Assembly: GCA_017464475.1 (NCBI GenBank)
Contig: JAFTZQ010000017.1
Coordinates: 21,853 to 85,852, forward strand
Source of the DNA: Paludibacteraceae bacterium
GTDB lineage: Bacteria > Bacteroidota > Bacteroidia > Bacteroidales > Paludibacteraceae
DNA: 64,000 nucleotides
Reading direction: 5' to 3'
Numbering within the stretch: the stretch's first letter is position 1; each line of letters opens with the position of its first letter. Made by a program: the position numbers and the translations under genes. Shown here in pieces: positions 1 through 62,293 of the stretch. The notes under the pieces were generated by a model that saw only the letters and a list, made by a program, of their open reading frames with translations, had not been told where the DNA came from and did no database searches.

Positions 1-586
1 CGGTATAGTTACGATCGGTATGTTCGGTGGCGGCAATAATGCGAAGACCACTTTCTTGCAGGTAACGCAGTGCATTCTGTAAGTTTTCTACTTTGCAAAT
101 AGGTAATGAATGAAGTGCACCGGCAGAGGCTTTGACAGCATCGCCGTTGATTGCTGCGCTCCCGCGCGTACCTATTATCAACGCGTCCACGCCTGCGCAC
201 ACGCAGGTACGAGCGATCGCTCCGAAATTGCGCACATCGGTCACGCCATCGAGCATCATCAGCAGCGGCGTCTTGCCTTCGTCGTAGAGGCTCTGAACGA
301 GGTTCTCCAATGGATAGAACTCTATCGGACTCAGAAAAGCGATCACGCCCTGATGGTTCTTATCGGTGAACTGATTCAGTTTCTCCAGCGGTACACGTTG
401 GATCTGCGTGCCGGTTCCCTCCAGTTTGATGAGTAACTCGCGTCCGATAGCAGACGACATATCGCGGCGGATGAGCACTTTATCCAGCACTTTGCCGGCA
501 TCGATTGCCTCCATCACTGCCCGAACTCCGAAAATCATCTCTTTCTCTTTCGGACGGCGTGTTTCGTATTGTTTCTTCTGTATCAT
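1..586 (-). CDS. rlmB: 23S rRNA 2'-O-ribose methyltransferase, SpoU/TrmH family (RlmB-like); C-terminal part lies outside the window
   Basis: Not in the ORF track because it is open at the window edge. My reverse-strand translation from ATG 586-584 reads MIQKKQYETRRPKEKEMIFGVRAVMEAIDAGKVLDKVLIRRD...LDGVTDVRNFGAIARTCVCAGVDALII. It starts 4 nt after the dsbD-like stop. Confidence 0.8.
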   Translation of the reverse strand, partial: MIQKKQYETRRPKEKEMIFGVRAVMEAIDAGKVLDKVLIRRDMSSAIGRELLIKLEGTGTQIQRVPLEKLNQFTDKNHQGVIAFLSPIEFYPLENLVQSLYDEGKTPLLMMLDGVTDVRNFGAIARTCVCAGVDALIIGTRGSAAINGDAVKASAGALHSLPICKVENLQNALRYLQESGLRIIAATEHTDRNYT

Positions 587-590
587 AAGA

Positions 591-2186: not shown

Positions 2187-3211
2187 TCGTTATTGTTTTC
2201 GTTTTGCTCTATCATTCGTTTAATTTCTCTATCGAAGTCCGAGGTAATGGATTGCGTGCGATTGAAAATATCGTATTCGGTTTCCGCTTTTTCATCGGCT
2301 TGTGCTTTGGAAATACGCCCTCTGTCCGGCAGAATATTATAACGCCGGAAGGAAAGAAATTCGTTTACGCTGGCGGCGAACTGCTCCATATTAAACGTAT
2401 TTTCCCGCTCAATCAAGTCTTCTATATAATCAAAATATCCCGACACAGCCCGTTCCAAGCGACGAATTTGTTTCTCATCCAGATAGTTCTTCGCAACCGT
2501 CACATCAGACTTCAGAATTCGTCCATCCGGCGAATTCTTCCATGTCTGGAGTCCCATGTGTTCTTGCGTATGGTCTGCGTGGGTATAAATAATTTCTGCT
2601 GCTGTTTGACCGGTTATCGCGTAATGGAAGCGATTTTGCACCATAGCATAAAACTCTCGCGTAGTCGGAGCTTGGGGATCGTAATCAATACTACATTCCG
2701 CATAAATATCTGTTATCTGCTGCCAAATACGGCGCTCACTTGCACGGATGGAACGAACGCGCTCCAGGAGTTCACGGAAATAATCCTGTCCGAAGACCGC
2801 TTTTCCTTGTTTGAGACGCTCATCATCCAGCACGAAACCCTTGCGGATATATTCATTCAGGATTTTAGTCGCCCATTGACGGAAACGCGTTGCACGTGTA
2901 GAATTAACACGATAGCCAACGGAGATAATAGCATCAAGGTTGTAAAAATCTATTTCTTCCGTAACCTCACCTCTAATACCTCTATTTACGACGGTTGCAA
3001 TTTTTGCAACAGTCGCATCCGTCGACAATTCTCCTGTTTCATATATATTTTTCAGATGCCGACTTATAGACGATTTGTCAACATCAAAAAGCGTTGCCAT
3101 CGCTTTCTGCGTCATCCATATTGTCTCATCGCGCACAACCACTTGCACCTGAGCCGTATTGTCAGGCGCGTCGTACAAAAGAAATAATGTCTGTTTGTCT
3201 AATGGTGTCAT
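2183..3211 (-). CDS. RhuM-family virulence/Fic-associated protein
   Basis: 342 aa. The N-terminus ...VVVRDETIWMTQKAMATLFDVDKSSISRHLKNIYETGELS... is typical of RhuM family proteins. ATGA overlap with the dsbD-like start. Confidence 0.75.
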   Translation of the reverse strand: MTPLDKQTLFLLYDAPDNTAQVQVVVRDETIWMTQKAMATLFDVDKSSISRHLKNIYETGELSTDATVAKIATVVNRGIRGEVTEEIDFYNLDAIISVGYRVNSTRATRFRQWATKILNEYIRKGFVLDDERLKQGKAVFGQDYFRELLERVRSIRASERRIWQQITDIYAECSIDYDPQAPTTREFYAMVQNRFHYAITGQTAAEIIYTHADHTQEHMGLQTWKNSPDGRILKSDVTVAKNYLDEKQIRRLERAVSGYFDYIEDLIERENTFNMEQFAASVNEFLSFRRYNILPDRGRISKAQADEKAETEYDIFNRTQSITSDFDREIKRMIEQNENNNE

Positions 3212-4872: not shown

Positions 4873-5892
4873 TTAAATATAGTTCACTTCCGGGGAGATG
4901 GCAATGCCGAACTTCTCTTTTACGTCCTTGCAGATAGCCGCGGCGAGATTGACAATATCTTCCGGCGTGGCGTTGTTTCGGTTGACGAGCACCAGCGGCT
5001 GTTTCTCGTAGCACTGTGCGCCGCCCATCATCTTGCCTTTCCATCCGCATTGCTCTATCAGCCATGCCGCAGGGATTTTGCATAACCCCACCCCTTCCCT
5101 CCCCTCGAGGGAGGGAGCATTATAGTGCGGCATGTCAGGATAGAGTTTTAATAGTTCGTCGGCTTTTTCTTTCGGAACAACCGGATTTTTGAAGAACGAA
5201 CCGGCAGAGCCAAGTTCGGACACTTCGGGCAGTTTCTGTTGACGAATGCGGATTACCGCTTCGCGAACAGACATGGGCGTTGGATTAAAACCGACTTCGC
5301 TACTCAGATTGCCGTAATTCAGCTTCGGCTCGAAATGCTTGTTGAGCCGGTACACGACGTGCGTAATGATATATTTCCCGCGGAGGGAGTTCTTGAAAAT
5401 ACTGTCGCGGTAGCCGTACTGACATTCGGCATTGGAGAAGATCCGCTCCGCTCCATCGGCGATGGAAACAGCCCGTACGGACTCAATCACATCTTTCGCT
5501 TCCACGCCGTACGCACCGACGTTCTGCACCGCGGACGCTCCCACTTCGCCCGGAATATAACTGAGGTTTTCGAGTCCCGAAATGCCCATATCGCATAGTT
5601 GCGCGATCAGTTCGTCCAGGACAAGTCCGTTCTCCGCCTCAATCCACACATAGTCCGCATCCTCGCTTACACACCGTGCGCGACGCATAGCCGAGTGCAG
5701 CACCACACCGTCGAAGTCCTTGGTAAACAAGAGGTTAGAGCCTGCTCCTATATGGAGAAGCGGCTCGCCTTTATATTGCTCCAACAACGCACGCAGTTCC
5801 TCCACCGAACTGTATTCGGCAAATATCTTCGCCTTCACATCCATTCGGAAAGTGTTGAACGGCAACAACGATATATTCTCTCGAATCAACAT
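4873..5892 (-). CDS. murB: UDP-N-acetylmuramate dehydrogenase
   Basis: 339 aa. FAD-binding N-domain (NTFRMDVKAKIFAEY...HIGAGSNLLF) and the C-terminal MurB domain (GSFFKNP, AAWLIEQCGWKG). Confidence 0.92.
   Translation of the reverse strand: MLIRENISLLPFNTFRMDVKAKIFAEYSSVEELRALLEQYKGEPLLHIGAGSNLLFTKDFDGVVLHSAMRRARCVSEDADYVWIEAENGLVLDELIAQLCDMGISGLENLSYIPGEVGASAVQNVGAYGVEAKDVIESVRAVSIADGAERIFSNAECQYGYRDSIFKNSLRGKYIITHVVYRLNKHFEPKLNYGNLSSEVGFNPTPMSVREAVIRIRQQKLPEVSELGSAGSFFKNPVVPKEKADELLKLYPDMPHYNAPSLEGREGVGLCKIPAAWLIEQCGWKGKMMGGAQCYEKQPLVLVNRNNATPEDIVNLAAAICKDVKEKFGIAISPEVNYI
5083..5120 (-). repeat. GC-rich palindromic element copy, in-frame inside murB
   Basis: Coding strand gctccctccctcgaggggagggaaggggtggggtta encodes APSLEGREGVGL. 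Same consensus and reading frame as the copies at 49061-49095 and 49197-49233. Confidence 0.7.
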
Positions 5893-7923: not shown

Positions 7924-8559
7924 ATGTCTAAACAACCTGCAATCATAGTTCCGGAAGGGTGCACAAAAGTGCTGCTGCATGCCTGTTGTGCACCCTGCTC
8001 CAGCGCGATCGTGGAATGGCTGCTGGCTCATCAGATTGAGCCGGTGATCTATTATTTCAATCCGAATATTTATCCACAAGAGGAGTATGAGATCCGTAAA
8101 AACGAGAGCAAGCGGCATGCCGAGAGCTTGGGGATTGAGTGGATTGACGGGGATCGTTGGGCACATGCGGAATGGCTTCGGGCGGTGACGGGTCTGGAAC
8201 ATGAGCCGGAGCGAGGCAGACGATGCGAGGCATGTTTCTACCACCGGCTGTTCTATACCGCGCGGAAAGCGCAAGAGCTGGATATTCCGTTCTTTGCTAC
8301 GACCTTGGCTTCCTCACGATGGAAGAATCTGGATCAAGTGAACGCCGCCGGAAAGCGTGCAGAAGAGATGGTGAACAAATATCCGGCGGACAGCGCAGTC
8401 CACGAGCCGGTGCATTTCTGGGCACAGAATTGGCGCAAAGACGGACTGCAGGAACGACGGAACGAACTACTGAAAGAATACCAATTCTACAACCAGCTTT
8501 ACTGCGGTTGCGAATTCTCCCTTTCTCGTCCCGGTGATGTCATGCTAACAACCCACTAA
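7924..8559 (+). CDS. queH: Epoxyqueuosine reductase QueH (DUF208)
   Basis: Start at Met58 of the track ORF (MSKQPAIIVPEGC...). Cys motifs CCAPCS, RCEACFYHRL and LYCGCEFS. Confidence 0.8.
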   Translation: MSKQPAIIVPEGCTKVLLHACCAPCSSAIVEWLLAHQIEPVIYYFNPNIYPQEEYEIRKNESKRHAESLGIEWIDGDRWAHAEWLRAVTGLEHEPERGRRCEACFYHRLFYTARKAQELDIPFFATTLASSRWKNLDQVNAAGKRAEEMVNKYPADSAVHEPVHFWAQNWRKDGLQERRNELLKEYQFYNQLYCGCEFSLSRPGDVMLTTH

Positions 8560-8593
8560 TCACCCACTAATCACCCACTAATCACCCACTCAT
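8550..8593. repeat. 11 bp tandem repeat CACCCACTAAT x4
   Basis: aacccactaat cacccactaat cacccactaat cacccactcat. The queH stop codon (8557-8559) lies in the first unit. Confidence 0.9.
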
Positions 8594-8611
8594 ATAAGGT
8601 AATTAGAACAT

Positions 8612-8672: not shown

Positions 8673-10667
8673 TTACCAACCCATTCCGCCACCGGGTCCG
8701 CCTCCGGAGTTACCTCCGGAATAGGAAGAGAGCGTAACGGAGGAGCCTCCGGAAACAGTAGCCGGATAATATCCCACTCCGTCAAAGATGCTTGTTCCCG
8801 AGGCTGTTACGCCGGAAACAAGTGTCGGTGTTGATGCGCCGGAAACGACCATTCCGCTTCCTCCGCTACTCGGTGTCTTGAAAGCAAAGGTGGTGCTGCC
8901 GACCGTTAGGGCATACCATGTGTTGGTGGACCAGGAGCCGCTACTGCTTCCGCCGGGACCACCTCCTGAATTACCACCGGGACCGCCTCCTGAATTACCG
9001 CCGCCGGAAGAGGAGCCTGCGGAATAGCAGCTCTGCGTCAGGCTTGCCCCACTCTCGAGTCCGCCGATAGCAACCAGTGTGCCGCCCTGCACATAGAGTT
9101 TATAGCCGCTCTCGGTATTGGCGTCAATCGCCACCTCGGGCGAAGAAGCACCGATAGCATAGACCAGACCGCCCCTGATATAACAGTTGCCGTTTGCGTC
9201 AATGCCGTCGTTGTTGGTAGCACGGGCATAGACCATTCCGCCGCTGATAGTCAGATGACTTGCTGCATTAATGGCATCATCATACGCCGAAACAGCCACT
9301 TCGCCGCCGGTGATGTCCAGTGTCGATTTGGACTCAATGCCTTCGCCGTTTCTGCCGGAGGTGGTAACATAAATCTTGCCGCCGGAGATAGTGATTGCTC
9401 CGGCTACTTTGATACCTTTAGGCGAGGAATAATAGCTGCTGCTGATATTGTCGGTATTGCCGGTATAGTTCGTATTCTCGGTCGAACCGTTGTTGTAATA
9501 CAGCCCTCCGGTGGTGGTAGCTGTGATGAAAGCGCTGTCGCTGACAGCCAGCGCGCCGTCGCACTTGAGTCCCTTTCCTCCTGAGCCGGTAGCCTTCAGG
9601 GTAAGCGTACCGCCACTGATAGCCATATTGGCATCAGCTGAGAGACCAGCCGCCGCTTTCGTTTCGCTATCATCGCTATCCCACTTGCCCGCGCCGGAGG
9701 TGGTGACATCGAGCGTACCGCCGGTAATATACATGTCTCCAGCACTCTTGATACCCTTTGCAGCTGCCGCCGAGGCAGTGATAGCTACCGTTCCGCCGGA
9801 GATATAGATATTACCGGTATCTTCGTCCTCATGGTCGGTGGTAATACCGGTGGAGGTCGTGCCGCCTAAATCGCATTGGATACCGTCATCGCCGATACCG
9901 GATAGGGTAATCGTGCCGCTCTTGATCTCCATGTACTCCTCGCAGTTGATACCGTCGCCTACAGTCGAGGTGATGTTCAACGTCAGATTCTTGACAGAGA
10001 TATACGACGCAGACTTGATACCATGCTTGGTATTGCCGATTACATTAAGCGTACCGTTACCTTGAATCTGCAGCTGTCCTTTGCTATAGACACACGCTTT
10101 CTGCGAGCCGGAGGCGCAGTCGGTCAGAGTGTTTGTTGTACCGTTCTTGGCGGACAACTGAATACGCTTGGAGTTAGTGATGTTAATCGCCGCTCCGTTC
10201 GGGTTAGTGAGCGTCACACCCGCCAGCGAAACCGTGCATTTGTACGAGCCGGAGAGGGAGAGCGAACCGTTGGAGGAAGTGCCGCTGAGTTGGTACGTAA
10301 TCTCATCGTTGCCCACGGCGTCAGTATTGCTTTGGGCAATAGTGACGTGTGCTCCGCTAAAAGTGGGTGTCACATATTGCGCCACATTACCGGCAACTGT
10401 AACCGTTGCCGACGAACTGCTGTATGCTATGCTCACAAGATTGTCCGTCACTGCCGTTTCATCCACCCACATACTGTCTATCTCGCTGAGAGTGAATGTT
10501 TTGCCCATTGCGGTCAGTGTGGTGCCATCCGAGAAAGGCATTACTCCTGCCTGCGAAGCCGGGAAGAGATAGGTCACATTGCCCACCTGCACGTTGAGAG
10601 TCTGTGCGTCAATGTACAAAGGGACAAAGTACAAAGTACAAAGGATTGCTACTAATATCTTTTTCAT
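8673..10667 (-). CDS. Secreted beta-helix protein, Cthe_2159-like carbohydrate-binding domain family (paralogue A)
   Basis: 664 aa with signal peptide MKKILVAILCTLYFVPLYIDAQ. Repeated GDDGIQ / NDGIDANGN / AIDAN beta-helix rungs and Gly/Pro-rich spacers. The C-terminal half is very similar to the 14671..16347 product. Confidence 0.7.
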   Translation of the reverse strand: MKKILVAILCTLYFVPLYIDAQTLNVQVGNVTYLFPASQAGVMPFSDGTTLTAMGKTFTLSEIDSMWVDETAVTDNLVSIAYSSSSATVTVAGNVAQYVTPTFSGAHVTIAQSNTDAVGNDEITYQLSGTSSNGSLSLSGSYKCTVSLAGVTLTNPNGAAINITNSKRIQLSAKNGTTNTLTDCASGSQKACVYSKGQLQIQGNGTLNVIGNTKHGIKSASYISVKNLTLNITSTVGDGINCEEYMEIKSGTITLSGIGDDGIQCDLGGTTSTGITTDHEDEDTGNIYISGGTVAITASAAAAKGIKSAGDMYITGGTLDVTTSGAGKWDSDDSETKAAAGLSADANMAISGGTLTLKATGSGGKGLKCDGALAVSDSAFITATTTGGLYYNNGSTENTNYTGNTDNISSSYYSSPKGIKVAGAITISGGKIYVTTSGRNGEGIESKSTLDITGGEVAVSAYDDAINAASHLTISGGMVYARATNNDGIDANGNCYIRGGLVYAIGASSPEVAIDANTESGYKLYVQGGTLVAIGGLESGASLTQSCYSAGSSSGGGNSGGGPGGNSGGGPGGSSSGSWSTNTWYALTVGSTTFAFKTPSSGGSGMVVSGASTPTLVSGVTASGTSIFDGVGYYPATVSGGSSVTLSSYSGGNSGGGPGGGMGW
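8953..9000. repeat. 24 bp tandem duplication inside paralogue A (encodes GNSGGGPG x2)
   Basis: ccgggaccacctcctgaattacca / ccgggaccgcctcctgaattaccg read directly. Confidence 0.8.
10614..10644. repeat. GTACAAA-type heptamer run inside the signal-peptide coding region of paralogue A
   Basis: aatgtacaaagggacaaagtacaaagtacaaagg, which encodes LCTLYFVPLY. Confidence 0.7.
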
Positions 10668-11629
10668 TGCTGTATTTCTTTACCTGTTATTGAATATGTT
10701 TTGCCGTTGCGCTCAATGAGCAATATCCCGTTGCGGAGGATTTTGGCAGCTTGCAGTTGTCCGGTTGGCGTTTGGTCAATTGCTGACGTTGCTGCAACAT
10801 TCAGAGAAGCCGCATCAGCCACCGACTGCGTGCCAGCCGCTTTGACTGCTTCGCCGGTCGAGCCGGAGGTATTGATATTGATGGTACCGCCGGTCATGGT
10901 GAAGTTGCCGGTGTTCTCCGCAGATGTGTCATTGGCCTCCAAATCCACCTGAATACCGTCGTCACCGAAACCTGAGAGGTTGATGACTCCGCTCTCCATC
11001 AGGAAATACTGGTTGCAGTTGATGGCATCCTTGACCGCCGAATAGACATTGATCGTGCAGTTCTTCATCTCGATGTACTCTCCAGCTTTGATAGCATGGG
11101 CATAGTTGCCATAGACATTGAGCGTACCCTTTCCTTTGAACTGAATATGTCCTTTGCAGTAGAGCGCGCCCTTCCAAGCGTCCGCAGCAGTCGAAGTGCC
11201 GTCTTTGAGCGTGCTTTCCGTACCGCTCTTGGCACTAATCTCAATACGCTTTCCGTTCTGGATATCTATCGCCGGTCCGGTGGGGTTGGTGATAGAGACG
11301 CCGAAGAGTTCGAGCGTGGCTTTGTATGTGCCGGTAAAAGTGAACGAACCGTCCGTTGTAGTGCCATAGAGACCGTATGAGACCTCGTTGATTGTTGCGG
11401 AGGCAGTAGAAGTGATTGCCACATCGGCTCCGCTGATTTCGGCAGTGATATAATCTTTGATATCCGAAGAGACCTCCACCGCAGCCGAAGAGCCGCTATA
11501 GGTTACTTTGACATAACAGGTTGTGTCGGAGGTATAAGTCACCTGCGCTGAAAGGGACAAAGGAGCAATGTACAATGTACAAAGGGTCAATGCACAGAGT
11601 ACAAAGGTTCGCATGAATGTTCTTTTCAT
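10664..11629 (-). CDS. Secreted beta-helix protein, shorter Cthe_2159-like paralogue B
   Basis: 321 aa with signal peptide. GFGDDGIQVD and ITNPTGPAIDIQNGKRIEISAKSGT match paralogues A and C. The C-terminal tail is KILRNGILLIERNGKTYSITGKEIQQ. ATGA-type 4 nt overlap with paralogue A. Confidence 0.65.
   Translation of the reverse strand: MKRTFMRTFVLCALTLCTLYIAPLSLSAQVTYTSDTTCYVKVTYSGSSAAVEVSSDIKDYITAEISGADVAITSTASATINEVSYGLYGTTTDGSFTFTGTYKATLELFGVSITNPTGPAIDIQNGKRIEISAKSGTESTLKDGTSTAADAWKGALYCKGHIQFKGKGTLNVYGNYAHAIKAGEYIEMKNCTINVYSAVKDAINCNQYFLMESGVINLSGFGDDGIQVDLEANDTSAENTGNFTMTGGTININTSGSTGEAVKAAGTQSVADAASLNVAATSAIDQTPTGQLQAAKILRNGILLIERNGKTYSITGKEIQQ
11553..11607. repeat. Degenerate GTACAAA-type heptamer run inside the signal-peptide coding region of paralogue B
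   Basis: gggacaaaggagcaatgtacaatgtacaaagggtcaatgcacagagtacaaagg, which encodes LCALTLCTLYIAPLSLS. Confidence 0.6.
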
Positions 11630-21670: not shown

Positions 21671-21691
21671 TGACCCGAAGGATAGAGGATG

Positions 21692-21730
21692 AAGGTTAAA
21701 GGTTAAAGGTTAAAGGTTAAAGGTTAAAGG
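21692..21730. repeat. 7 bp tandem repeat AAGGTTA x5.5
   Basis: aaggttaaaggttaaaggttaaaggttaaaggttaaagg read directly. Confidence 0.9.
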
Positions 21731-21782
21731 AAAAAAAATAATAAAAAAACGAAGAATATTTGCGTATATGCAATTTTTGTAG

Positions 21783-30527: not shown

Positions 30528-32663
30528 TTACTTTAAAACTCGTTCCAAAAAGCCCAACACGCGCTCATGCATGTGCTTGGCGTTGTTGCCTTTGCGCAGG
30601 AAATGATTGTCGTCCGGATAGAGCTGCATCTCGAATTGCTTGTCCGCCTTCACCAGCGCGTCAAAATACTGCATCGCGTGCTGCACATGCACATTGTCAT
30701 CGCCCGTTCCGTGAATAATAAGCACCTCGCCGCTCATGTCCTCCACATGGTTCATCAGCGAAGCCTCTTCATATCCGCGCGGATTAACCTGCGGACGACG
30801 CATATAGCGCTCCGTATAAGCACTGTCGTATAACCTCCAGTCGGTCACCGGCGCGATCGCCACACCTGCTTTGAACGGATGTCCCTTGGTGCTCATCGTC
30901 ATCAGCGTCTCATAGCCGCCGTAACTCCAGCCGAGGATTGCCATTCTGTCCGCGTCTATCTCCGGACGCTGACCGATATAGTTCGCTGCAGCAATCAGAT
31001 CCTCCGCTTCCTTGATTCCCAAGCCCATATACGTCTCGTTGCGCCAAGCACGACCACGGCAGTCACCGCCGCGGCTGTCCACAATCAGCACAGCGTAACC
31101 TTCTTCTACTAACGCATATTCGAACCGTTTGCGCCAACGGTTCAACACCCGCTGACTCGCAGGACCGCTGTAGTGCATCACTATCAACGGCTTTGGTCCT
31201 TGGTCCTTGGTCACTTTGTCGCTTATCATCAGCATCGCTTCCAACTCCTGACCCTTGCCGTTCGGGATCTTCATCAGCTCCGGTTCAGGCAGACCGTTGG
31301 ATCTCCAAGCCTCAGCCAGAGAATCATTGCTCAGCAGCACTTCCCCACCCTTAAGGGGTGAAGAGCTCTGCTCGATCGAGCGTCCTGTGGACGGTCGTAG
31401 AACTCCCGGGGAGGGGTTTTTATACAATGTATATCGGTTCGGTGTGTCGAAACTCTGGTAACAGTCGATCATCTTCTTGCCGTCTGCGCTGAACCGCGCG
31501 CTATGTATGCCTTCGCCTTCCGTCAGTTGAACGCTGACAGCTGATTTCTGAAGGCCTACTGCATAAATCTGCCTTGTGCTCGGCGTCGGAGCGGCTTGGA
31601 AATACAGCATCTGCGCTTTCTCGTCCACGGCGTACAGCGCGGTCACATCCCGCTCCTCCGGCGTCAGCATTCGCTGCTCGATCCCTTGCGCGTTATAGAG
31701 GTACGCACGACGCCAACCGTCTTTCTCGCTCAGCACAATGATCCTTCCGTCGCTCAGCCATTTCCACTCGTCGAACAGGCTGTAATCCACGAAATAGTTC
31801 TTGCTTTCCTCTTTGTACAGCAGGTTCGAAACGGTCGATTTGGCATTGCACGCAAAGACCTCCATCTTTGTCTGGTCTCTGTTCACGCGCAGCACAATCA
31901 GTTCCCCGCTCTCCGTCCACCGCAACCGCGGGAAATAATAATCTGAATTCTGATGGCTGACTTCTGAAAACTGAATGTTCACAATCCCTTTCGTCGCCAC
32001 GTCATAGACGCAAACGCTCGCTTTCGCATTGGCACAACCGGCTTTCGGATAGCGCAGGCTCTCCATGTCCGGATACTGCGGATATTTAGTACTTGGTACT
32101 TGGTCACTTGGTACTTCACCAAGATAATTCTGCCAACTGAACTCCGGCACGTCCGTCTCGTCCAGCCGTATAAACGCCAGTTGCTTCGAATCCGGACTCC
32201 AAGCGAACAACGCCGTGGTGGCAAACTCCTCCTCGTACAGCCAGTCCGCCACACCGTTGATGATCTCCGTGTTCTCGTCCTTCGTCACCGCCACTTCGGT
32301 GCCGAAATCGAGTTTGTGGACATAGAGGTTATTGCCTTTCGCAAAAGCCACATAGCGTCCGTTGGGACTCATCACCGCATCGCGCACCTTGACCTCTTCG
32401 CCCTTGAACATCCCTTCTCCCAGTCGCTTACGTGTGTGCCGCATTGTGTCATATACAAACCATTCCGCTACCTGCGAATGGCGGAAAATCTGCTCCTCGT
32501 TCTCGCGCTCCAGCCGATAGCGCGTACTTGGTACTTTGTCACTTTGTACCTTGTCACCTTGTACCTTCAAAATGCTGTCCTGCTCCGCGATAGAAAGCGT
32601 TTTCGCATTGTATTCGCCTGCCAGAATCGCCGGCAAAACCGATAATATCAGTAATAATTTCAT
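30528..32663 (-). CDS. Dipeptidyl-peptidase IV (S9B serine peptidase)
   Basis: Start at Met18 (MKLLLILSVLPAILA; CAT 32661-32663). Beta-propeller N-domain and catalytic triad motifs GWSYGGY, GTGDDNVH and DDNHF. Confidence 0.9.
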   Translation of the reverse strand: MKLLLILSVLPAILAGEYNAKTLSIAEQDSILKVQGDKVQSDKVPSTRYRLERENEEQIFRHSQVAEWFVYDTMRHTRKRLGEGMFKGEEVKVRDAVMSPNGRYVAFAKGNNLYVHKLDFGTEVAVTKDENTEIINGVADWLYEEEFATTALFAWSPDSKQLAFIRLDETDVPEFSWQNYLGEVPSDQVPSTKYPQYPDMESLRYPKAGCANAKASVCVYDVATKGIVNIQFSEVSHQNSDYYFPRLRWTESGELIVLRVNRDQTKMEVFACNAKSTVSNLLYKEESKNYFVDYSLFDEWKWLSDGRIIVLSEKDGWRRAYLYNAQGIEQRMLTPEERDVTALYAVDEKAQMLYFQAAPTPSTRQIYAVGLQKSAVSVQLTEGEGIHSARFSADGKKMIDCYQSFDTPNRYTLYKNPSPGVLRPSTGRSIEQSSSPLKGGEVLLSNDSLAEAWRSNGLPEPELMKIPNGKGQELEAMLMISDKVTKDQGPKPLIVMHYSGPASQRVLNRWRKRFEYALVEEGYAVLIVDSRGGDCRGRAWRNETYMGLGIKEAEDLIAAANYIGQRPEIDADRMAILGWSYGGYETLMTMSTKGHPFKAGVAIAPVTDWRLYDSAYTERYMRRPQVNPRGYEEASLMNHVEDMSGEVLIIHGTGDDNVHVQHAMQYFDALVKADKQFEMQLYPDDNHFLRKGNNAKHMHERVLGFLERVLK
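31191..31222. repeat. In-frame 7/8-mer tandem run (CTTGGTC type) in DPP-IV
   Basis: ctttggtccttggtccttggtcactttgtcgc, which encodes DKVTKDQGPKP. Confidence 0.75.
31343..31420. repeat. Cluster of five consecutive short palindromes, in-frame in DPP-IV
   Basis: ccccaccc-ttaa-ggggtg, agagctct, gctcgatcgagc, cgtcc-tgt-ggacg, ctccc-g-gggag followed by gggtttt. Encodes GVLRPSTGRSIEQSSSPLKGGEV. Confidence 0.75.
32089..32117. repeat. In-frame 7/8-mer tandem run (GTACTTG type) in DPP-IV
   Basis: agtacttggtacttggtcacttggtactt, which encodes EVPSDQVPSTKY. Confidence 0.8.
32524..32567. repeat. In-frame 7/8-mer tandem run (GTACTTT/GTCACTTT type) in DPP-IV
   Basis: gtacttggtactttgtcactttgtaccttgtcaccttgtacctt, which encodes KVQGDKVQSDKVPST. 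Confidence 0.8.
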
Positions 32664-32684
32664 CTTTTCACATTTTTTGGCGTG

Positions 32685-32692
32685 CAAAATTA
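32685..32692 (-). promoter_or_regulatory. -7 box TAatTTTG for DPP-IV
   Basis: caaaatta on the + strand, 21 nt upstream of ATG 32663. Confidence 0.55.
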
Positions 32693-32807
32693 CAAAAAAA
32701 ACGGCACATACCAAACCGCGAAAAACAATTTGTCAAATAAATTATGCAATTTGCTGTTTTTTTATAAAAAATAAACGCGTGCGCTTGCGTATATGGAAAA
32801 GATTTTG

Positions 32808-39324: not shown

Positions 39325-39364
39325 ACAATAAGGTACGTGCGCATACGCGTGCGTACCTTATTGT
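39325..39364 (+). terminator. Strong hairpin after nqrF (terminator-like, but lacks a clear T-run)
   Basis: acaataaggtacg (39325-39337) pairs with cgtaccttattgt (39352-39364), and there is an inner gcg/cgc stem. Confidence 0.5.
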
Positions 39365-39372
39365 AATTTAAT

Positions 39373-39432
39373 CCCTAAGGACCTTAAGGACTTTAACGAC
39401 CTTAATGACCTTAATAACCTTAAAGACTTTAC
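39373..39432. repeat. Array of roughly 10 bp GACCTTAANN units upstream of the four-helix-bundle gene
   Basis: ccctaaggaccttaaggactttaacgaccttaatgaccttaataaccttaaagacttta read directly. Confidence 0.85.
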
Positions 39433-39440
39433 TTTCTACT

Positions 39441-39995
39441 ATGTCCGAACAATTGATTCCGCATCGCGGCAACTACAAGCAGTTACTCAGCTACCAGAAG
39501 ACGAACGTCATCTTCTGCATGACGTATTACTTTGTGGAGCACTATATTCAGAAAGGAGACCGGACATATGACCAGATGTTGCAAGCAGCCCGTTCCGGCA
39601 AGCAGAACATCATCGAAGGCTGTGCCGCCAGCAGTACTTCTGCCAAGACGGAGATTAAACTGGTCAATGTGGCGAAAGCCAGTTTGCAGGAACTATTGGA
39701 AGACTATGAGGATTACCTCAAGACACGCGGTTTGCGTCAATGGGAGGAAGATTCGGACGAGTTGAACGCGATGCGAGACTTGGGCAGAAAACACAACGAT
39801 GCCGAGTTTTTCATGGCACTGATAGAAACCCGTCCGCCGGAGACTATTGCCAACATGTGTATCGTGCTCATCAAACAAGCGGACTACTTGCTGTACAAGC
39901 AGTTGCAACGTCTGAGTGATGATTTCATGAAAGAGGGCGGTTTCTCCGAACGCATGTACCGTCTCCGCTCCCAAAACCGCCCCAACCACCAATAA
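39441..39995 (+). CDS. Four-helix-bundle protein (23S rRNA intervening-sequence protein family, with suffix domain)
   Basis: I place the start at the second ATG (MSEQLIPHRGNYKQLLSYQK...), because the first 12 codons of track ORF 39405 are repeat-array sequence. ...QMLQAARSGKQNIIEGCAASSTSAKTEIKLVNVAKASLQELLEDYEDYL.... Confidence 0.7.
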   Translation: MSEQLIPHRGNYKQLLSYQKTNVIFCMTYYFVEHYIQKGDRTYDQMLQAARSGKQNIIEGCAASSTSAKTEIKLVNVAKASLQELLEDYEDYLKTRGLRQWEEDSDELNAMRDLGRKHNDAEFFMALIETRPPETIANMCIVLIKQADYLLYKQLQRLSDDFMKEGGFSERMYRLRSQNRPNHQ

Positions 39996-40002
39996 TAAAA
40001 GA

Positions 40003-40063
40003 GTTTAGGGTCTTTAATGACCTTAACGACCTTAGAGACCTTAATAACCTTAAAGACTTTTTT
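40003..40063. repeat. Second array of GACCTTAANN units downstream of the four-helix-bundle gene
   Basis: The 24-mer gaccttaataaccttaaagacttt is identical at 39407-39430 and 40037-40060. Confidence 0.85.
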
Positions 40064-40176
40064 AACTCTTTCCCGCTTGGGTGCAGATCTGCGATATTGT
40101 AGCAGTCAATCAGCCACTCTCAAGCAACTCTCGCGACACTTTAAAATGTCAGTTGTTATGATTACTTCACAACGAA

Positions 40177-40236: not shown

Positions 40237-42042
40237 TTATTTTACCTCTTGGCCTGTAACGGTGTAAGTCTTGTCGCCGCTCAGGATATACACATTCCCG
40301 TTCTTGATCAGTTTCTGCGCGGGGTTGGCGGGATTCGTATAAACAGCCGGAGCCTCCGTCGGAGTATTCGCCTCATACACGGCTTGCAGCACAATTCCCT
40401 CCGCCAGATCACCGGGTAGCACTTGCCATTTGAGGAACGTGAAACCCTCAATACGCGGAGCGTGAGGAATCTGCCATTTCTGCGCCTCCATATAATGGAG
40501 TGTGCTGTCCTCTTTCAGATAACTTACCTGAACCGTCTGTTCCTCAAACTGCAGGTCGGTTGCCACACCTATTATATTCGCGAAATCGCACCAGACCGCT
40601 TTGGCTTGATAGAGGTCGATGTAATCCATCGGCACATATAGAATACAGGTCTGTTTGTTGACGTTATTTACCGTGCGTTCGGTAATCGTCTGCGGCGTAT
40701 AAGCATAGTTCCGAATCGCCTGCAAAGCAGAGCAGTTATAGAACGCGTCCTGATTGATGGTTGTCACAGAGGATGGAATGACCACTTCCTCCAATGCCGT
40801 ACAGCCTTCTAACACGCTGGTTGCCACGGTCTTAATACCCTGCGGAAACTCAAAATGCTTCAGGTTCGTGCAATACATGAAAGCGCTTTGTCCGATGTTG
40901 GTCACGGTAGCCGGAATAGCGATAGTTTCTATCTTCATGTACTTACACAAATACGCCGGAATTACTTGCACGCTGTCGCCGAACGTGAACGACGTCACTT
41001 GCGAATTGGTGCTATAGAACGGCGCGCTGTCATCCGAGCCGATTGTGCAGCTCTTCGGTTTCCATACTATCGTAGTCGTCGGATTTTCTTTAAAAGCCGC
41101 GTTGCCTATCGATGTAACTGTACTTGGAATAGTGATCTCCGTCAGCTTGCAGTTATAGAACGCACGCAGACCGATGGTCGTCAGACCTTCTTCCAAGTTC
41201 ACGCTGCCTAATTTTATGCAGCCGTAGAAAGCATCTGCGCTAATGGTGGTCAAAGTCGCAGGTAGTTCAATGGACTCCAACGAGGTACAGCCCTCCAAGA
41301 AACTGATAGGCAGTGTCTTTTGCATTACAGGCAAGTTAATGGATTTGAGATTCGTGCAATTCATGAAAGCATACTGACCCAGTCTGTTGACCGAAGCCGG
41401 AAGCACAATCGTATCTATCTTGTTCATGTTTTTGCATATATACGAAGGCACTACCTCTACGCCGTCCGCAAAAGTAAACGAGGTCACTTGCGAATTTGTG
41501 CTATAGAACGGCGCGCTATCATCCGAACCGATTGAGCAGTCTGCCGGTTTCCACACAATCGTGGTCGTCGGGTTGCCCTTGAAAGCGGAATTACCAATTG
41601 ATGTAACCGTACTCGGAATAGTGATCTCCGTCAGTGCGCAGTTATAGAACGCACGCAGACCGATACTCGTCAATCCTTCTTCCAAGTTCACGCTGCCTAA
41701 TTTTGTGCACCCCCAGAAAGCGTCCGTTCCGATAGTGGTGACGGATGTCGGCAGGGTCACGGATTGCAGGTTTGTCAGGCCCTCAAACGCGCTTGTCCCG
41801 ATACTCGTCACAGGATACGTGTAGTTGTTATAGGTCACGGACGCAGGGATAGTAACCGCCGTGTAGTCTTTATAGACGGATTTGTCCGAACTCTGGTCAT
41901 TAACCACTTGTGCCGTAGTTGTACCCAACGAATAATACAGACCGTTCAACTTGACGGTTTCGGCATACAGACTTGTTGCGCTTACTATCAGCGCAAGAAG
42001 CAGTAATCGTGCCCGTAGGCTAAAAAATAAATAATGTTTCAT
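40237..42042 (-). CDS. BspA-like leucine-rich-repeat surface protein
   Basis: 601 aa with a signal peptide. Repeated ...IPSSVTSIG..AF..C..L..I.. LRR units, an internal roughly 98 aa duplication, and the C-terminal tail KLIKNGNVYILSGDKTYTVTGQEVK. Confidence 0.8.
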   Translation of the reverse strand: MKHYLFFSLRARLLLLALIVSATSLYAETVKLNGLYYSLGTTTAQVVNDQSSDKSVYKDYTAVTIPASVTYNNYTYPVTSIGTSAFEGLTNLQSVTLPTSVTTIGTDAFWGCTKLGSVNLEEGLTSIGLRAFYNCALTEITIPSTVTSIGNSAFKGNPTTTIVWKPADCSIGSDDSAPFYSTNSQVTSFTFADGVEVVPSYICKNMNKIDTIVLPASVNRLGQYAFMNCTNLKSINLPVMQKTLPISFLEGCTSLESIELPATLTTISADAFYGCIKLGSVNLEEGLTTIGLRAFYNCKLTEITIPSTVTSIGNAAFKENPTTTIVWKPKSCTIGSDDSAPFYSTNSQVTSFTFGDSVQVIPAYLCKYMKIETIAIPATVTNIGQSAFMYCTNLKHFEFPQGIKTVATSVLEGCTALEEVVIPSSVTTINQDAFYNCSALQAIRNYAYTPQTITERTVNNVNKQTCILYVPMDYIDLYQAKAVWCDFANIIGVATDLQFEEQTVQVSYLKEDSTLHYMEAQKWQIPHAPRIEGFTFLKWQVLPGDLAEGIVLQAVYEANTPTEAPAVYTNPANPAQKLIKNGNVYILSGDKTYTVTGQEVK

Positions 42043-45903: not shown

Positions 45904-45934
45904 ACCTTTTACCTTTCACCTTTCACCTTTTTTT
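45904..45934. repeat. 7 bp tandem repeat ACCTTTC x4
   Basis: acctttt acctttc acctttc acctttt, starting 2 nt after the porin stop. Confidence 0.85.
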
Positions 45935-45944
45935 CCTTCCAAAA

Positions 45945-45993
45945 GGGGGTGATAAGGGGGTGATTAGGGGGTGATTAGGGGGTGATTAGGGGG
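45945..45993. repeat. 11 bp tandem repeat GGGGGTGATTA x4
   Basis: gggggtgataa gggggtgatta gggggtgatta gggggtgatta ggggg read directly. Confidence 0.9.
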
Positions 45994-46062
45994 ATATTCG
46001 TATAACGCTACCGACTGGCAACTATGACAAAAACAAACATATTAACAACAAATTAACGTATT

Positions 46063-47275: not shown

Positions 47276-48913
47276 ATGAGAAAAGAATTTTTATTCATGG
47301 CTCTGGCAGCTCTCGCGCTGGCGGGTTGTAACCCGGGAGGAGGCAGCAACACGCCCGAGACAGACATGCCCGAATGGTATTACACCGGCGGCAAACAGGG
47401 TACTGCCATCAACTCTTCATCCATGGCTTTCCGCCAGCCTACTCCGGCTACCGACGAAGCGGGATTAGGTACTATGTTCGCGCAAGGCGATAATATCGCG
47501 GAGAAAGATTTCGTGACCAACGGTTCGGGGCGTCAGCATGGTCTGGGACCTGTCTATGTACGCGCGTCATGCCAGCATTGCCACCCCAACTACTCCCACG
47601 GTACGTCCGTGCCTGCCGGCACCTACGATGCGGCGCACCAAGGAAACGGAACCCTCCTCGTGGTTATCAATCCTACTACCCAAGCCTACGTGCCTTGGTT
47701 AGCCGGTATGCCGCAACTCTTCGGAGCCAAACCGTTTAAAGCTCCGCTTGACCCGGACCAGATCACCGTTACGTGGAAGACCGCAACCGACGAACACGGA
47801 AACAAGTTTGCGGATGGCGAGACCTACGAACTGCGCTACCCGGAGGTAACGATGCCGAACACCGCAGTATATGTTTATAACCAAGGCTACCGCGACCCGG
47901 ACGGATTGCTGGAGAGCGAGGGATACGAAGTGCTGCTGGAGAACACCATCGGCGTCTATGGAACCGGCTTGCTCGATGCCATTACGGATGAGGACATCAT
48001 CGCCCAGTACGCCAAAGAAGAGGCGGACGGCAAACTCAAGAACGGTCTCAACCCCGCTATTTATGCCGGCGGAATGCAGACTTCCGGTTACTATAAGAAC
48101 GACCCGCAGTGGGGACCTAAGCGTTTCACCTACGCCCTCTCCCGCGGTCCGCTGCAGGACGCTGCCGGGGCAAACGCTATCTGGAACATCACCAATGTCA
48201 CACGTTCCGACCGCAGATACCACTATCTGGACCTCAATGGGACGATTTATGCCGAATATGCCTCCAAAGACCCCGAGGTGCAAGCCGGTTTTGCCGACTA
48301 TATAGCCAAACTGGACCCGAACAACGAGCACCCCGAATGGCGTACGGACAACATGGAGAGCAATATCAAGGAGTTCCTGACCAGCAAGACCCTGCCGGCA
48401 GAGATGAGCGATGATGAGTTCACCCAAGTCATGGTTTGGCACCGCGGTCTGGCGGTTCCTGCTGCTCGTAACGTGACCGACAAACAGGTCCTCCGCGGTA
48501 AAGAACTCTTCACACAGATCGGCTGCGACTACTGCCACCGTCCTACTTGGACCACCGGTCCGGACGAAGTGCGCGACCCGAACAACTTCCCCGTTACGGC
48601 GAAGATGCCGCGTTACCCGAACCAGAAGATCTGGCCGTACACCGACATGGTTCAGCATAAACTGCACATGGAAAATGATATCCGCACCGGCTGGTGCCGC
48701 ACCACCCCGCTCTGGGGACGCGGTCTGCACCGCAAAGCGACAGGTGACGCATACGACGCGCGTATGCACGACACTCGTGCACGCAACGTGATCGAAGCGA
48801 TTATGTGGCATGGTTATAGCACCGAATCCGATGCGTATTATCCTACCCAGGAGTTCTATAAACTCGAAAAATCTGACCGCGATGCAATCGTTGCTTTCAT
48901 CAATGCGATCTAA
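47276..48913 (+). CDS. Di-heme c-type cytochrome oxidoreductase (DUF1111 / peroxidase-like) lipoprotein
   Basis: 545 aa with lipobox LALAGC. Two CxxCH motifs (CQHCH and CDYCH). Confidence 0.75.
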   Translation: MRKEFLFMALAALALAGCNPGGGSNTPETDMPEWYYTGGKQGTAINSSSMAFRQPTPATDEAGLGTMFAQGDNIAEKDFVTNGSGRQHGLGPVYVRASCQHCHPNYSHGTSVPAGTYDAAHQGNGTLLVVINPTTQAYVPWLAGMPQLFGAKPFKAPLDPDQITVTWKTATDEHGNKFADGETYELRYPEVTMPNTAVYVYNQGYRDPDGLLESEGYEVLLENTIGVYGTGLLDAITDEDIIAQYAKEEADGKLKNGLNPAIYAGGMQTSGYYKNDPQWGPKRFTYALSRGPLQDAAGANAIWNITNVTRSDRRYHYLDLNGTIYAEYASKDPEVQAGFADYIAKLDPNNEHPEWRTDNMESNIKEFLTSKTLPAEMSDDEFTQVMVWHRGLAVPAARNVTDKQVLRGKELFTQIGCDYCHRPTWTTGPDEVRDPNNFPVTAKMPRYPNQKIWPYTDMVQHKLHMENDIRTGWCRTTPLWGRGLHRKATGDAYDARMHDTRARNVIEAIMWHGYSTESDAYYPTQEFYKLEKSDRDAIVAFINAI

Positions 48914-48923
48914 GCCCGTTACA

Positions 48924-50006
48924 ATGCTGTTGCACCTCGCCCTCGCGATAATTATCGTGGGGGCGTGTGTGACGCATTTCTTCGGCATGCAGGGCGAGAT
49001 CCATCTCCGAGCCGACAAAGCTCAAACTCTCACCTACAAATCGCCATACTCTGCCTCTTTCTCCTCCCTTGAGGGGAGGTTGGGAGGGGTTTCCTCCCCC
49101 ACCGTTTCCCTCTTCCTTTGGGATTTTCAGATCGTCTATGCCGAGGATGGCGTGACGCCGGTGGATTACCTCACCGAACTGCGCCTGCTTGATCGTTCCT
49201 CCTCCCCTGAGGGGAGGTCGGGTGGGGTTTCACTCTCTTCTGTAGACGAAGGAACCATTCGGATGAACAAACCGCTCAAATACCACGGTTTCCGCTTCTG
49301 CCAGTCCGATTACGACAGCGACCTGATGGGCGTGGTGCTTACCTATAACTACGACCCGTGGGGAATTGGAATTACCTATACCGGCTATGCCCTCCTGCTG
49401 ATCTCCATGATCGCTTTCTTCTTTCGTCGGAACACCATCTTCCGCGCGAAACTGAAGCAGTCGGTCTTTGCTCAGCGCAGCGGCATATACTCGGCTGCCT
49501 TCATCGCCCTCATTGCGATCTTGGCGCTGGTAATGACCAAAGTGGTGACACCCAAACCGCCTTTGCAGCCGGTACTACAAACGCCGCTCTTGGGAATCCA
49601 TGTATCGGTAATCATGCTGGCGTACACTCTCTTTGCTATCATTGCCATCAACGGCATATTAGGGCTGTGCATGGCGCAGAAACGCGAGATGCTCATGACG
49701 CTCTCTCAAGTCCTCCTCTACCCTGCTATCTTCTGCCTTGCCGCAGGAATCTTCATCGGCGCCGTATGGGCGAACCTCTCTTGGGGACGGTACTGGGGAT
49801 GGGATCCGAAAGAGACATGGGCGCTGATTACGATGATCGTCTATGCCTGCCAACTCCATTGGCCCCTGATCATTGGTAAACTGAAACTCACAGACAACAA
49901 AGCACAAACCATCTACCACATCATTTCTGTGGTAAACTTCCTCTTTGTGCTCTTCACCTATTTCGGAGTAAATCGACTGTTGGGAGGATTACATTCCTAC
50001 GCTTAA
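48924..50006 (+). CDS. Cytochrome c biogenesis protein, CcsA/ResC-like with an N-terminal membrane extension
   Basis: Start MLLHLALAIIIVGACV (alternative ATG at 48903). The tryptophan-rich motif WGRYWGWDPKETW is followed by a conserved His region. Confidence 0.7.
   Translation: MLLHLALAIIIVGACVTHFFGMQGEIHLRADKAQTLTYKSPYSASFSSLEGRLGGVSSPTVSLFLWDFQIVYAEDGVTPVDYLTELRLLDRSSSPEGRSGGVSLSSVDEGTIRMNKPLKYHGFRFCQSDYDSDLMGVVLTYNYDPWGIGITYTGYALLLISMIAFFFRRNTIFRAKLKQSVFAQRSGIYSAAFIALIAILALVMTKVVTPKPPLQPVLQTPLLGIHVSVIMLAYTLFAIIAINGILGLCMAQKREMLMTLSQVLLYPAIFCLAAGIFIGAVWANLSWGRYWGWDPKETWALITMIVYACQLHWPLIIGKLKLTDNKAQTIYHIISVVNFLFVLFTYFGVNRLLGGLHSYA
49061..49095 (+). repeat. GC-rich palindromic element, in-frame in the ccsA-like gene (copy 1)
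   Basis: ctcctcccttgaggggaggttgggaggggtttcct encodes SSLEGRLGGVSS. Confidence 0.75.
49197..49233 (+). repeat. GC-rich palindromic element, in-frame in the ccsA-like gene (copy 2)
   Basis: The 17 bp perfect palindrome cctcccctgaggggagg (49201-49217) is followed by tcgggtggggttt. Encodes SSPEGRSGGVS. Confidence 0.8.
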
Positions 50007-60915: not shown

Positions 60916-61211
60916 GTTAATAATTTTATTTTTGTTTATTGCTGCATGGACTTTTGGTTGTTTACCTCCTCTGGAGGTGAGGGATCGCTCTGACGAGCTA
61001 CCGGAAAGTTCTTTACGAGTAGCGCGGCGGGGCGGGCACTCATAGCGCGCTTAGCGCAACAACCAAAATTCAGGCAGGGTTTATCTATGTTTATTTTCGT
61101 TATTTTTCTTCAATTTTTGTAAGCGAAGCGCATTTTCGATTTCCTTAAGCACTCAAAGTTTTTTTATGTTTTTTTCTTTTCTAATCACAAACCATAAATA
61201 TCAAAATCTCG

Positions 61212-62230: not shown

Positions 62231-62293
62231 AACTACAAATTACAAATCACAAACTACAAATTACAAATCACAAACTACAAACCACAAACTACG
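62231..62293. repeat. 7 bp tandem repeat AA(C/T)(T/C)ACA x9 with a 21 bp super-period
   Basis: aactaca aattaca aatcaca, then the same three units again, then aactaca aaccaca aactacg. It fills the whole intergenic spacer and contains the upstream stop codon. Confidence 0.9.

Follow-up and report, generated by a model that had tools for sequence, protein, structure and literature searches.

Class II intrastrand triplex motifs (TM) consist of a 5' pyrimidine domain, a purine domain and a 3' reverse-Hoogsteen domain on one DNA strand, defined by a stem of 6-15 with at most one mismatch, loops of 1-6 nt and an antiparallel third domain (Holder et al. 2015, PMC4666352). The element was first seen in Escherichia coli as BoxC and later found again as PIT elements by Hoyne et al. 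2000 (PMC4666352). The TM_ECO type, CCCTCNCCC-N3-6-GGGNGAGGG-N3-GGGNGAGGG, has 3610 occurrences in 262 proteobacterial genomes, and its isolated single strand forms a stable triplex in vitro by circular dichroism and nuclear magnetic resonance; a purine-motif triplex cannot form in RNA (PMC4666352). TM motifs have no known promoter or terminator activity and mark locally variable regions. No association with transposons, phages or plasmids was found for them, and the surroundings of the E. coli copies showed no remains of a transposase or integrase; the 23 copies of E. coli K-12 are all intergenic, and the same paper makes no mention of Bacteroidetes or of intragenic copies (PMC4666352). Comparative analysis of a 64,000-nt stretch of DNA (hereafter the window) from a Paludibacteraceae bacterium of the order Bacteroidales (assembly GCA_017464475.1, contig JAFTZQ010000017.1, positions 21,853 to 85,852 of the forward strand) identified four motifs of this architecture within conserved genes: two in a cytochrome c assembly gene of the CcsBA type (ccsBA), one in murB and one in a dsbD-like gene.

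On their domain order, the ccsBA, murB and dsbD copies are members of the class II purine-motif intrastrand triplex motifs (BoxC/PIT/TM class), with folding itself predicted. Each presents on one strand a pyrimidine arm, a complementary purine arm after 3-5 nt and, after a further 3 nt, a third arm that mirrors the purine arm (reversed, not complemented), placing G opposite G and A or T opposite A (Table 1). This mirror rule is the triad code G.G-C, A.A-T and T.A-T, and thus corresponds to the antiparallel purine-motif triple helix of the class II intrastrand triplexes. A triad-aware scanner written from the definition of Holder et al. (at least 7 triads, at most one mismatch, loops of 3-8 and 2-4 nt) found exactly these four motifs in the window versus 0.01 in 100 dinucleotide shuffles, all of them intragenic and within Pfam-supported open reading frames (ORFs). 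Their triads number 7/7, 7/7, 8/8 and 7/7, the stems are 7-8 bp long with 0-1 mismatch, the first loop has 3 or 5 nt and the second has 3 nt in all four. The original prediction, made by reading the letters of the window, was of a GC-rich palindromic element; the palindrome is there, but it covers two of the three domains, and the third, mirror-symmetric block had been missed. Its placement of two copies in the ccsA-like gene with common orientation and frame, of another in murB, and of one on the opposite strand of the dsbD-like gene proved correct.

Table 1. Triplex motifs, their host genes and other repeats of the window (Y, pyrimidine arm; R, purine arm; RH, reverse-Hoogsteen arm)
Feature	Position	Strand	Description
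ccsBA triplex motif 1, CCTCCCTTGAGGGGAGGTTGGGAGGGGTT	49063-49091	+	Read as SSLEGRLGGV; Y CCTCCCT 49063-49069, loop TGA 49070-49072, R GGGGAGG 49073-49079, loop TTG 49080-49082, RH GGAGGGG 49083-49089, tail TT
ccsBA triplex motif 2, CCTCCCCTGAGGGGAGGTCGGGTGGGGTT	49201-49229	+	Read as SSPEGRSGGV; Y CCTCCCC 49201-49207, loop TGA 49208-49210, R GGGGAGG 49211-49217, loop TCG 49218-49220, RH GGTGGGG 49221-49227, tail TT
Host gene ccsBA	48810-50006	+	ResB-like + CcsA cytochrome c assembly protein, CcsBA-type fusion; Pfam PF05140, PF01578
murB triplex motif, sense, long subfamily	5084-5115	-	Read as PSLEGREGVGL; Y CCCTCCC 5115-5109, loop TCGAG 5108-5104, R GGGAGGG 5103-5097, loop AAG 5096-5094, RH GGGTGGG 5093-5087, tail GTT
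Host gene murB	4873-5892	-	UDP-N-acetylenolpyruvoylglucosamine reductase; Pfam PF01565, PF02873; PDB matches
dsbD-like triplex motif, antisense to gene, TM_ECO-like sequence type	1864-1895	+	Gene strand reads NLTPTLSSGEG; Y CCCTCTCC 1864-1871, loop TGA, R GGAGAGGG 1875-1882, loop TTG, RH GGGTGAGG 1886-1893, tail TT
Host gene dsbD-like	591-2186	-	DsbD-like thiol:disulfide interchange protein; Pfam PF02683, PF13899, PF13098
Composite repeat in DPP-IV	31340-31418	-	In frame (NPSPGVLRPSTGRSIEQSSSPLKGGE), within ORF 30528-32714
Short tandem repeats	39358-39448, 39988-40078, 45944-45998, 8545-8602, 21678-21733, 10610-10649, 11551-11612, 61178-61205, 62240-62288

The window copies share with TM_ECO, BoxC and the PIT elements (the last reportedly described by Hoyne et al. 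in 2000, as a repeat of the BoxC class) the domain order, the triad code, a first loop of 3-6 nt, a second loop of 3 nt, a length of about 30-37 nt, a G/C-rich composition and many dispersed copies that differ between close relatives and have no known mobility gene. The dsbD copy shares 8 of the 9 triads of TM_ECO and matches 8/9 positions in each domain; the strict TM_ECO pattern has no exact match in the window. Unlike TM_ECO, the ccsBA copies (GGGGAGG arms) and the murB copy (GGGAGGG arms) are other sequence types with 7 triads instead of 9, and the host belongs to the Bacteroidales, not the Proteobacteria. In contrast to the intergenic copies of E. coli, 4/4 window copies are genic and translated, as are roughly half of the approximately 50 Bacteroidota copies sampled.

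The two ccsBA motifs are near-identical, about 30 nt long and on a common strand and in a common frame, and their ORF is intact; its true start is likely the ATG at 48882 (MQSLLSSM, as in homologues). The G-rich half, GAGGGGAGGNNGGGNGGGG, has 3 matches in the window with up to 2 mismatches (0.02 expected), and the 17-nt palindrome matches at 4 sites (8 strand-hits, 0.06 expected); a chance origin of the ccsBA copies is excluded. In an AlphaFold2 model of the window protein, the two lowest-confidence segments coincide exactly with the two motif peptides (residues 45-61 and 97-111, predicted local distance difference test score below 50 in each), both of which are modelled as loops between beta strands of the ResB-like domain. 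The motifs form direct repeats with starts 138 nt (46 codons) apart, and recombination between them would remove the intervening beta-hairpin in frame; no allele with such a deletion was present among 120 homologues.

The mirror rule holds well beyond the window. One genome per species was scanned with GAGGGGAGG-N2-4-GGGNGGGGTT, yielding at least 114 loci, and all fetched loci (about 0.98 Mb) were searched for hairpins with a pure-pyrimidine 5' arm, after which the downstream block was inspected. In these loci, 33 distinct purine arms were followed by a perfectly mirrored third arm, 24 of the 33 types lying outside the search pattern; arm pairs that obey the rule include AAGGGGAAGG/GGTAGGGGTA, AAAGAGGGGA/AGGGGAGTTA and GGGGAGAG/GAGAGGGG, as well as GGAGAGGG/GGGTGAGG of the dsbD copy. 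Asymmetric arms were perfect mirrors 84 times versus 21 times perfect direct repeats, the third-arm base opposite A was T in 151 cases and A in 105, and the second loop was 3 nt in 98 of the 119 motifs. The pyrimidine arm co-varies with both purine arms, and identical hairpins read on the opposite strand, as a control, score poorly against the rule.

Among the matches listed, about half came from rumen Bacteroidales and 'Paludibacteraceae' metagenome-assembled genomes (MAGs), often several per genome, with at least 8 motif loci in MAG RGIG4850; the remainder came from Stenotrophomonas, Luteimonas, Devosia, candidate-phyla bacteria, Clostridia, cyanobacteria, Nitrospirae, Planctomycetes and others. 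The motif is thus not confined to this genome or lineage, its architecture recurring across phyla, and among the same matches the complementary C-rich arm lay upstream in almost all true ones, although the search pattern did not require it. Bacteroidota hosts in which a Pfam domain spans the motif in the sense orientation encode chorismate synthase, a class I tRNA synthetase (ValRS-type), DXS, a KpsF-like isomerase, an aminotransferase, FecCD, PnuC, peptidase M28, RecF-like ATPases, DapA, DUF1295, MBOAT and CysRS, and those in the antisense orientation encode RsmH, a TonB-dependent receptor, a class II aminoacyl-tRNA synthetase, a Mur ligase and an ABC ATPase. These Pfam-verified hosts bear out the earlier expectation of a dispersed miniature family lying in frame in conserved genes with ORFs intact. 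Copies of other phyla looked mostly intergenic, as judged from ORF context only.

Genic copies carry the marks of a reading-frame filter. Two of the three sense frames of the motif are open and the third has a TGA, yet all 14 independent verified sense copies, together with the three in the window, use the GAG-GGG-AGG (S-L-E-G-R) frame (p about 8e-6 if both open sense frames were equally usable). Six candidate ORFs reading sense copies in the second open frame were considered, none with Pfam support, and were judged spurious. There are two length classes, 30 nt (SSLEGRxGGV) and 33 nt ((T/A)PSLEGRxGxG(L/F)), which differ by 1 nt in each of the three domains, so that a change of one triad keeps the reading frame. 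With copies in loops and linkers, no stop codons and a single sense frame, the motifs look filtered for a tolerated peptide, as had been proposed. The DXS gene of locus L036 (Bacteroidia MAG pig5.17, 298-2250, minus strand) has two triplex motifs in one essential gene, one antisense (NLTPTLSQGEG, +7 residues relative to E. coli DXS) and one sense (SSLEGRSGGVS). Species-level MAG pairs (L038/L083, L074/L075, L040/L056 and L018/L069) have the motif at matching gene positions; the motif cores are identical and the flanks differ, which indicates that individual copies can outlast speciation or are homogenised.

Close orthologues differ in whether they have the motif in ccsBA, murB and dsbD, as comparison of presence and absence had been expected to reveal. 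Among the 120 CcsBA homologues, motif 1 was found in the window, P0001, P0002 and P0004 only, with another form in P0093, and was absent from P0003 and P0005-7; motif 2 was found, besides the window, only in P0003, P0005, P0006 and P0008, and was absent from P0001, P0002, P0004 and P0007. The pattern is mosaic relative to overall similarity. Of two loci whose ccsBA part is 96% identical to that of the window, which has both motifs, L001 has motif 1 without motif 2 and L003 has neither, and motif 2 without motif 1 is found in L004 (92%) and L007 (91%). L005 (81%) has motif 2, which is identical to that of the window at 32/33 nt versus 81% for the rest of the gene part, an excess that points to DNA-level constraint or recent exchange. 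Site 1 was also considered as a clean 36-nt insertion relative to L005, a reading that was rejected because L005 retains the pyrimidine arm. At about 10180-10200 of L005 (ccsBA of P0008) the arm TCTTTCTCCTCCCTT is kept and the next 36 nt are gone. Since that arm remains with its typical 5' extension, site 1 of L005 is probably a partial in-frame deletion of the triplex motif; partial deletions are described for decaying E. coli copies (Holder et al., PMC4666352).

In murB, the motif region is 8 aa shorter in relatives at 91-93% identity, P0141 shares the motif, P0144 has it changed in its two loops only, and motif-bearing and motif-free alleles differ over about 30 residues. The dsbD motif lies in the linker that joins the N-terminal domain to the first membrane helix, a hypervariable segment. 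Across 80 orthologous loci the antisense motif is present in the window, L133 and L123 and absent from most, the linker of L168 has a sense motif (SLPLGEGVGVG), and most linkers have unrelated repeat-derived peptides. Compared with solved homologues, the motif-bearing proteins have extra residues: +7 in MurB (P. aeruginosa MurB, 7osq), +10 in chorismate synthase, +8 in DapA, and +4 and +7 in DXS. Absent from these homologues, the motif peptides appear as insertions and are not ancestral features of their families.

Taken as a whole, these findings are very probably explained by triplex repeats of the TM class that are selected at the DNA level and are gained, lost and exchanged within coding sequence, subject to a filter. 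When the strand is transiently single (lagging-strand template, transcription bubble or repair gap), the motif would fold into a hairpin with the third arm in its major groove; such folding in vivo is proposed by analogy with the E. coli relative, the only one for which folding in vitro has been demonstrated. The DNA-level architecture would be the conserved feature and the peptide a passenger. Gain, loss and exchange would take place inside the coding sequence of a lineage of rumen Bacteroidales, and a copy would persist if it is 30 or 33 nt long, has no stop codon, falls in a surface loop or linker, and is read either as S-L-E-G-R-x-G-x-G in the sense orientation or as a Pro/Thr/Ser-rich peptide in the antisense orientation. 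Dispersal suggests that the motif reaches new sites, most likely by a non-transposase route, which might be template switching or gap repair at the folded strand, combined with homologous recombination of whole alleles between strains; the latter appears visible in murB and at ccsBA site 2.

Translation initiation may help to explain why genic copies are tolerated. A 4-mer resembling the Shine-Dalgarno (SD) sequence is found upstream of 6/44 window genes, A makes up 43% of the upstream regions, and the sense coding strand of the window shows no depletion of GGAGG (1.45 per kb). Bacteroidota are known not to use SD-anti-SD pairing, and GGAGG-rich inserts may therefore be harmless within their genes. 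In bacteria that rely on SD pairing, intragenic motifs would make ribosomes pause or initiate internally and would thereby be restricted to intergenic DNA.

Several observations weigh against a folded, mobile triplex repeat. The E. coli triplex was undetected in duplex DNA and by in vivo dimethyl sulfate footprinting (PMC4666352). Nearest-neighbour DNA folding (ViennaRNA) recovers the pyrimidine/purine hairpins of the window copies as ordinary hairpins only, at -7 to -9 kcal/mol with z-scores of -0.8 to -2.2, the triads lying outside the model; the z-scores are unremarkable because shuffled C-rich and G-rich strings pair too. Mirror-symmetric arms such as GGGAGGG are uninformative as to mirror versus direct repeat, and all counts from the genome scan are samples and hence minima. 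No clean pair of empty and filled sites was found among the orthologues compared, and the alleles of murB and of ccsBA site 2 differ over longer stretches, which looks like allele replacement rather than insertion; for both reasons de novo insertion is deduced from dispersal and was not observed.

Part of the same evidence could be accommodated by a REP/REPIN-derived or IS200/IS605-derived hairpin (PATE-like), moved as a folded single strand by an HUH tyrosine transposase (RAYT/TnpA). Such movement would be expected to leave a short structured dispersed repeat without target-site duplications, and indeed none were found, the longest common substrings being 4.31 for own-flank and 4.21 for cross-flank comparisons, with both flanks T/C-rich and no more; conservation of structure rather than sequence across many sequence types and the high copy number of some genomes, such as MAG RGIG4850 (at least 8 loci), are also as it would predict. 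However, no conserved head sequence, GTAG-type or other fixed cleavage tetranucleotide was found next to the hairpin, an enzyme that recognises a hairpin has no need of a mirrored third arm, and no link to a transposase was found within the 64-kb window, nor, around the E. coli motifs, any vestige of a transposase or integrase (Holder et al., PMC4666352). Carriage by phages is likewise unsupported, the pattern having 8 matches in 2.9 million viral contigs. A transposase of this kind is therefore unlikely, and as to the mobile or recombinogenic hairpin of the original prediction, the element is not simply a hairpin and no evidence of mobility of the IS200/IS605 or RAYT type was found.

The G-rich arms might instead form a G-quadruplex in DNA or in the sense mRNA, with the C-rich arm as a competing hairpin switch, and quadruplex motifs of the canonical kind, with very short loops, are present in the murB copy (GGGG-A-GGG-AA-GGGG-T-GGGG) and throughout the long subfamily. 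The ccsBA copies have 3 runs of at least three G and the dsbD copy has 2, so that the four-run motif is confined in the window to the murB copy, and a G-quadruplex as the common feature was rejected. It is also very unlikely in view of the A-interrupted variants, which keep A or T at the mirrored position (GGAGAGGG/GGGTGAGG; AAAGAGGGGA/AGGGGAGTTA), as the triplex code predicts and to the detriment of a quadruplex, and of the co-variation of the pyrimidine arm with both purine arms. Selection of the S-L-E-G-R-x-G-G-V peptide, or of an mRNA hairpin, for a role in the protein or in expression would agree with the use of one sense frame in all 17 verified sense copies and with a motif that is more conserved than the flanking coding DNA. 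Yet matching DNA is also found antisense, where it encodes unrelated peptides, and between genes; the hosts, which include cytoplasmic enzymes as well as membrane and periplasmic proteins, share no feature; the peptides occupy loops modelled with low confidence, and close orthologues lack them; and an RNA hairpin would leave the third arm unexplained, a purine-motif triplex being impossible in RNA. Nor was there any meaningful Rfam match, either at gathering thresholds over the whole window or in E-value mode for two regions of it, and such a functional module is hardly credible.

A further insertion, in the ORF for DPP-IV, had been counted as a fifth copy in a fourth gene. It was rejected as a member of the triplex family, since it fails the triplex scan and is a distinct, longer repeat, so that the window counts four motifs, spread over three genes, and a single composite relative. 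The composite repeat is about 80-95 nt long and consists of AACCCC(W)CCCC, about 5 nt, GTTCTACGG, a small hairpin with compensatory changes, CGATCGAGCAGAGCTCTTCACCC and GCTCAAGGGAGGGAG, with a conserved middle of about 60 nt that includes CGATCGAGCAGAGCTCTTCACCC; its ends resemble the two outer arms (C-rich and G-rich) of an antisense triplex motif. At least 9 further Bacteroidales copies (L022, L027, L045, L104, L106, L112, L123, L140 and L171) were found by blastn-short, some of them in frame in DsbD linkers; the repeat was undetected by the triplex scan and has no Rfam match.

The window also has many short tandem repeats (Table 1), mostly between ORFs, with units of about 7-14 nt (e.g., TAAGGACCT, AGGGGGTGATT, AAGGTTA and GTACAAAG), some of which are paired in inverted orientation across tens of kb (8545-8602 versus 45932-46013). 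Others are translated: three in the DPP-IV ORF (31196-31228, 32089-32121 and 32524-32570) read KVQGDKVQSDKVPST and EVPSDQVPSTKYP, the CcsA homologues P0035 and P0065 have KMVNDKMVND... runs, and the DsbD linkers of L175 and L185 have AKGDEAKGDE... runs. Loop hypervariability in this lineage, as seen in CcsBA, DsbD and DPP-IV, thus has several repeat sources besides the triplex motifs. A 601-aa ORF (40237-42042, minus strand) has direct repeats of about 300 nt (40934-41233 and 41423-41722, 81% identical) and probably encodes a repeat-domain protein, as the syntenic ORF of L001 has LRR_5 domains.

Repeats of the BoxC/PIT/TM class have been known for about 30 years, and the intergenic copies of E. 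coli leave a history that is hard to read. Genic copies offer a natural experiment, in which orthologue alignments date gains and losses, codon positions part DNA-level from peptide-level selection, and strict frame and loop filters reveal what the cell tolerates. For annotation, G-rich insertions that read 'SLEGRxGGV' or 'NLTPTLSQGEG' in Bacteroidales proteins should be taken as repeat-derived and not as family features, and motif insertions contribute to loop hypervariability in rumen Bacteroidales proteins. The data suggest a possible link between the loss of SD pairing in Bacteroidota and tolerance of intragenic GGAGG-rich repeats. It is a bolder and rather doubtful proposition that the triplex motifs are active insertional elements of Bacteroidota, with the single-stranded fold as the substrate for copying and the composite repeat as a longer or cargo-carrying relative. 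If it were true, motifs of 30-33 nt would be the smallest mobile DNA known and, at 3 nt per added triad, would provide ready-made in-frame cassettes for remodelling the surface loops of essential proteins.

Other known systems resemble the present element in part. H-DNA has purine-motif triads and a mirror relation of two purine blocks, but it arises from one duplex mirror repeat under supercoiling, whereas the present element takes all three strands of the helix from one DNA strand and so needs an extra, inverted pyrimidine arm. Repetitive extragenic palindromic (REP) sequences and their BIME and REPIN assemblies are likewise GC-rich, structured repeats of a mere 20-40 nt that are scattered in hundreds of copies and thought to act as single-stranded DNA; however, they are simple imperfect palindromes, extragenic, with a conserved head tetranucleotide and a cognate RAYT, whereas the copies described here are intragenic and have T/C-rich flanks without a conserved GTAG-type head. 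Miniature inverted-repeat transposable elements have terminal inverted repeats, a target-site duplication and a length of about 50-500 bp, in contrast to 30-33 nt and no duplication here. A parallel in behaviour is offered by the Rickettsia palindromic elements (RPEs), selfish-looking in-frame inserts in unrelated conserved genes without a known transposase (review, PMC10969869). Both are found in frame in unrelated conserved genes with ORFs intact, where they add a peptide that the fold can accommodate. The likeness is one of behaviour only: RPEs are plain palindromes of about 100-150 bp that encode about 30-50 residues and are found in Rickettsia only, whereas the present element is 30-33 nt long, has triplex architecture and an unrelated sequence, belongs to a class that crosses phyla and is hosted by Bacteroidales. 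No description of in-frame repeats in Prevotella or rumen Bacteroidales was found in the literature. The class itself is known; the new aspect is its genomic niche, RPE-like, in frame within housekeeping genes of rumen Bacteroidales and under a strict frame filter.

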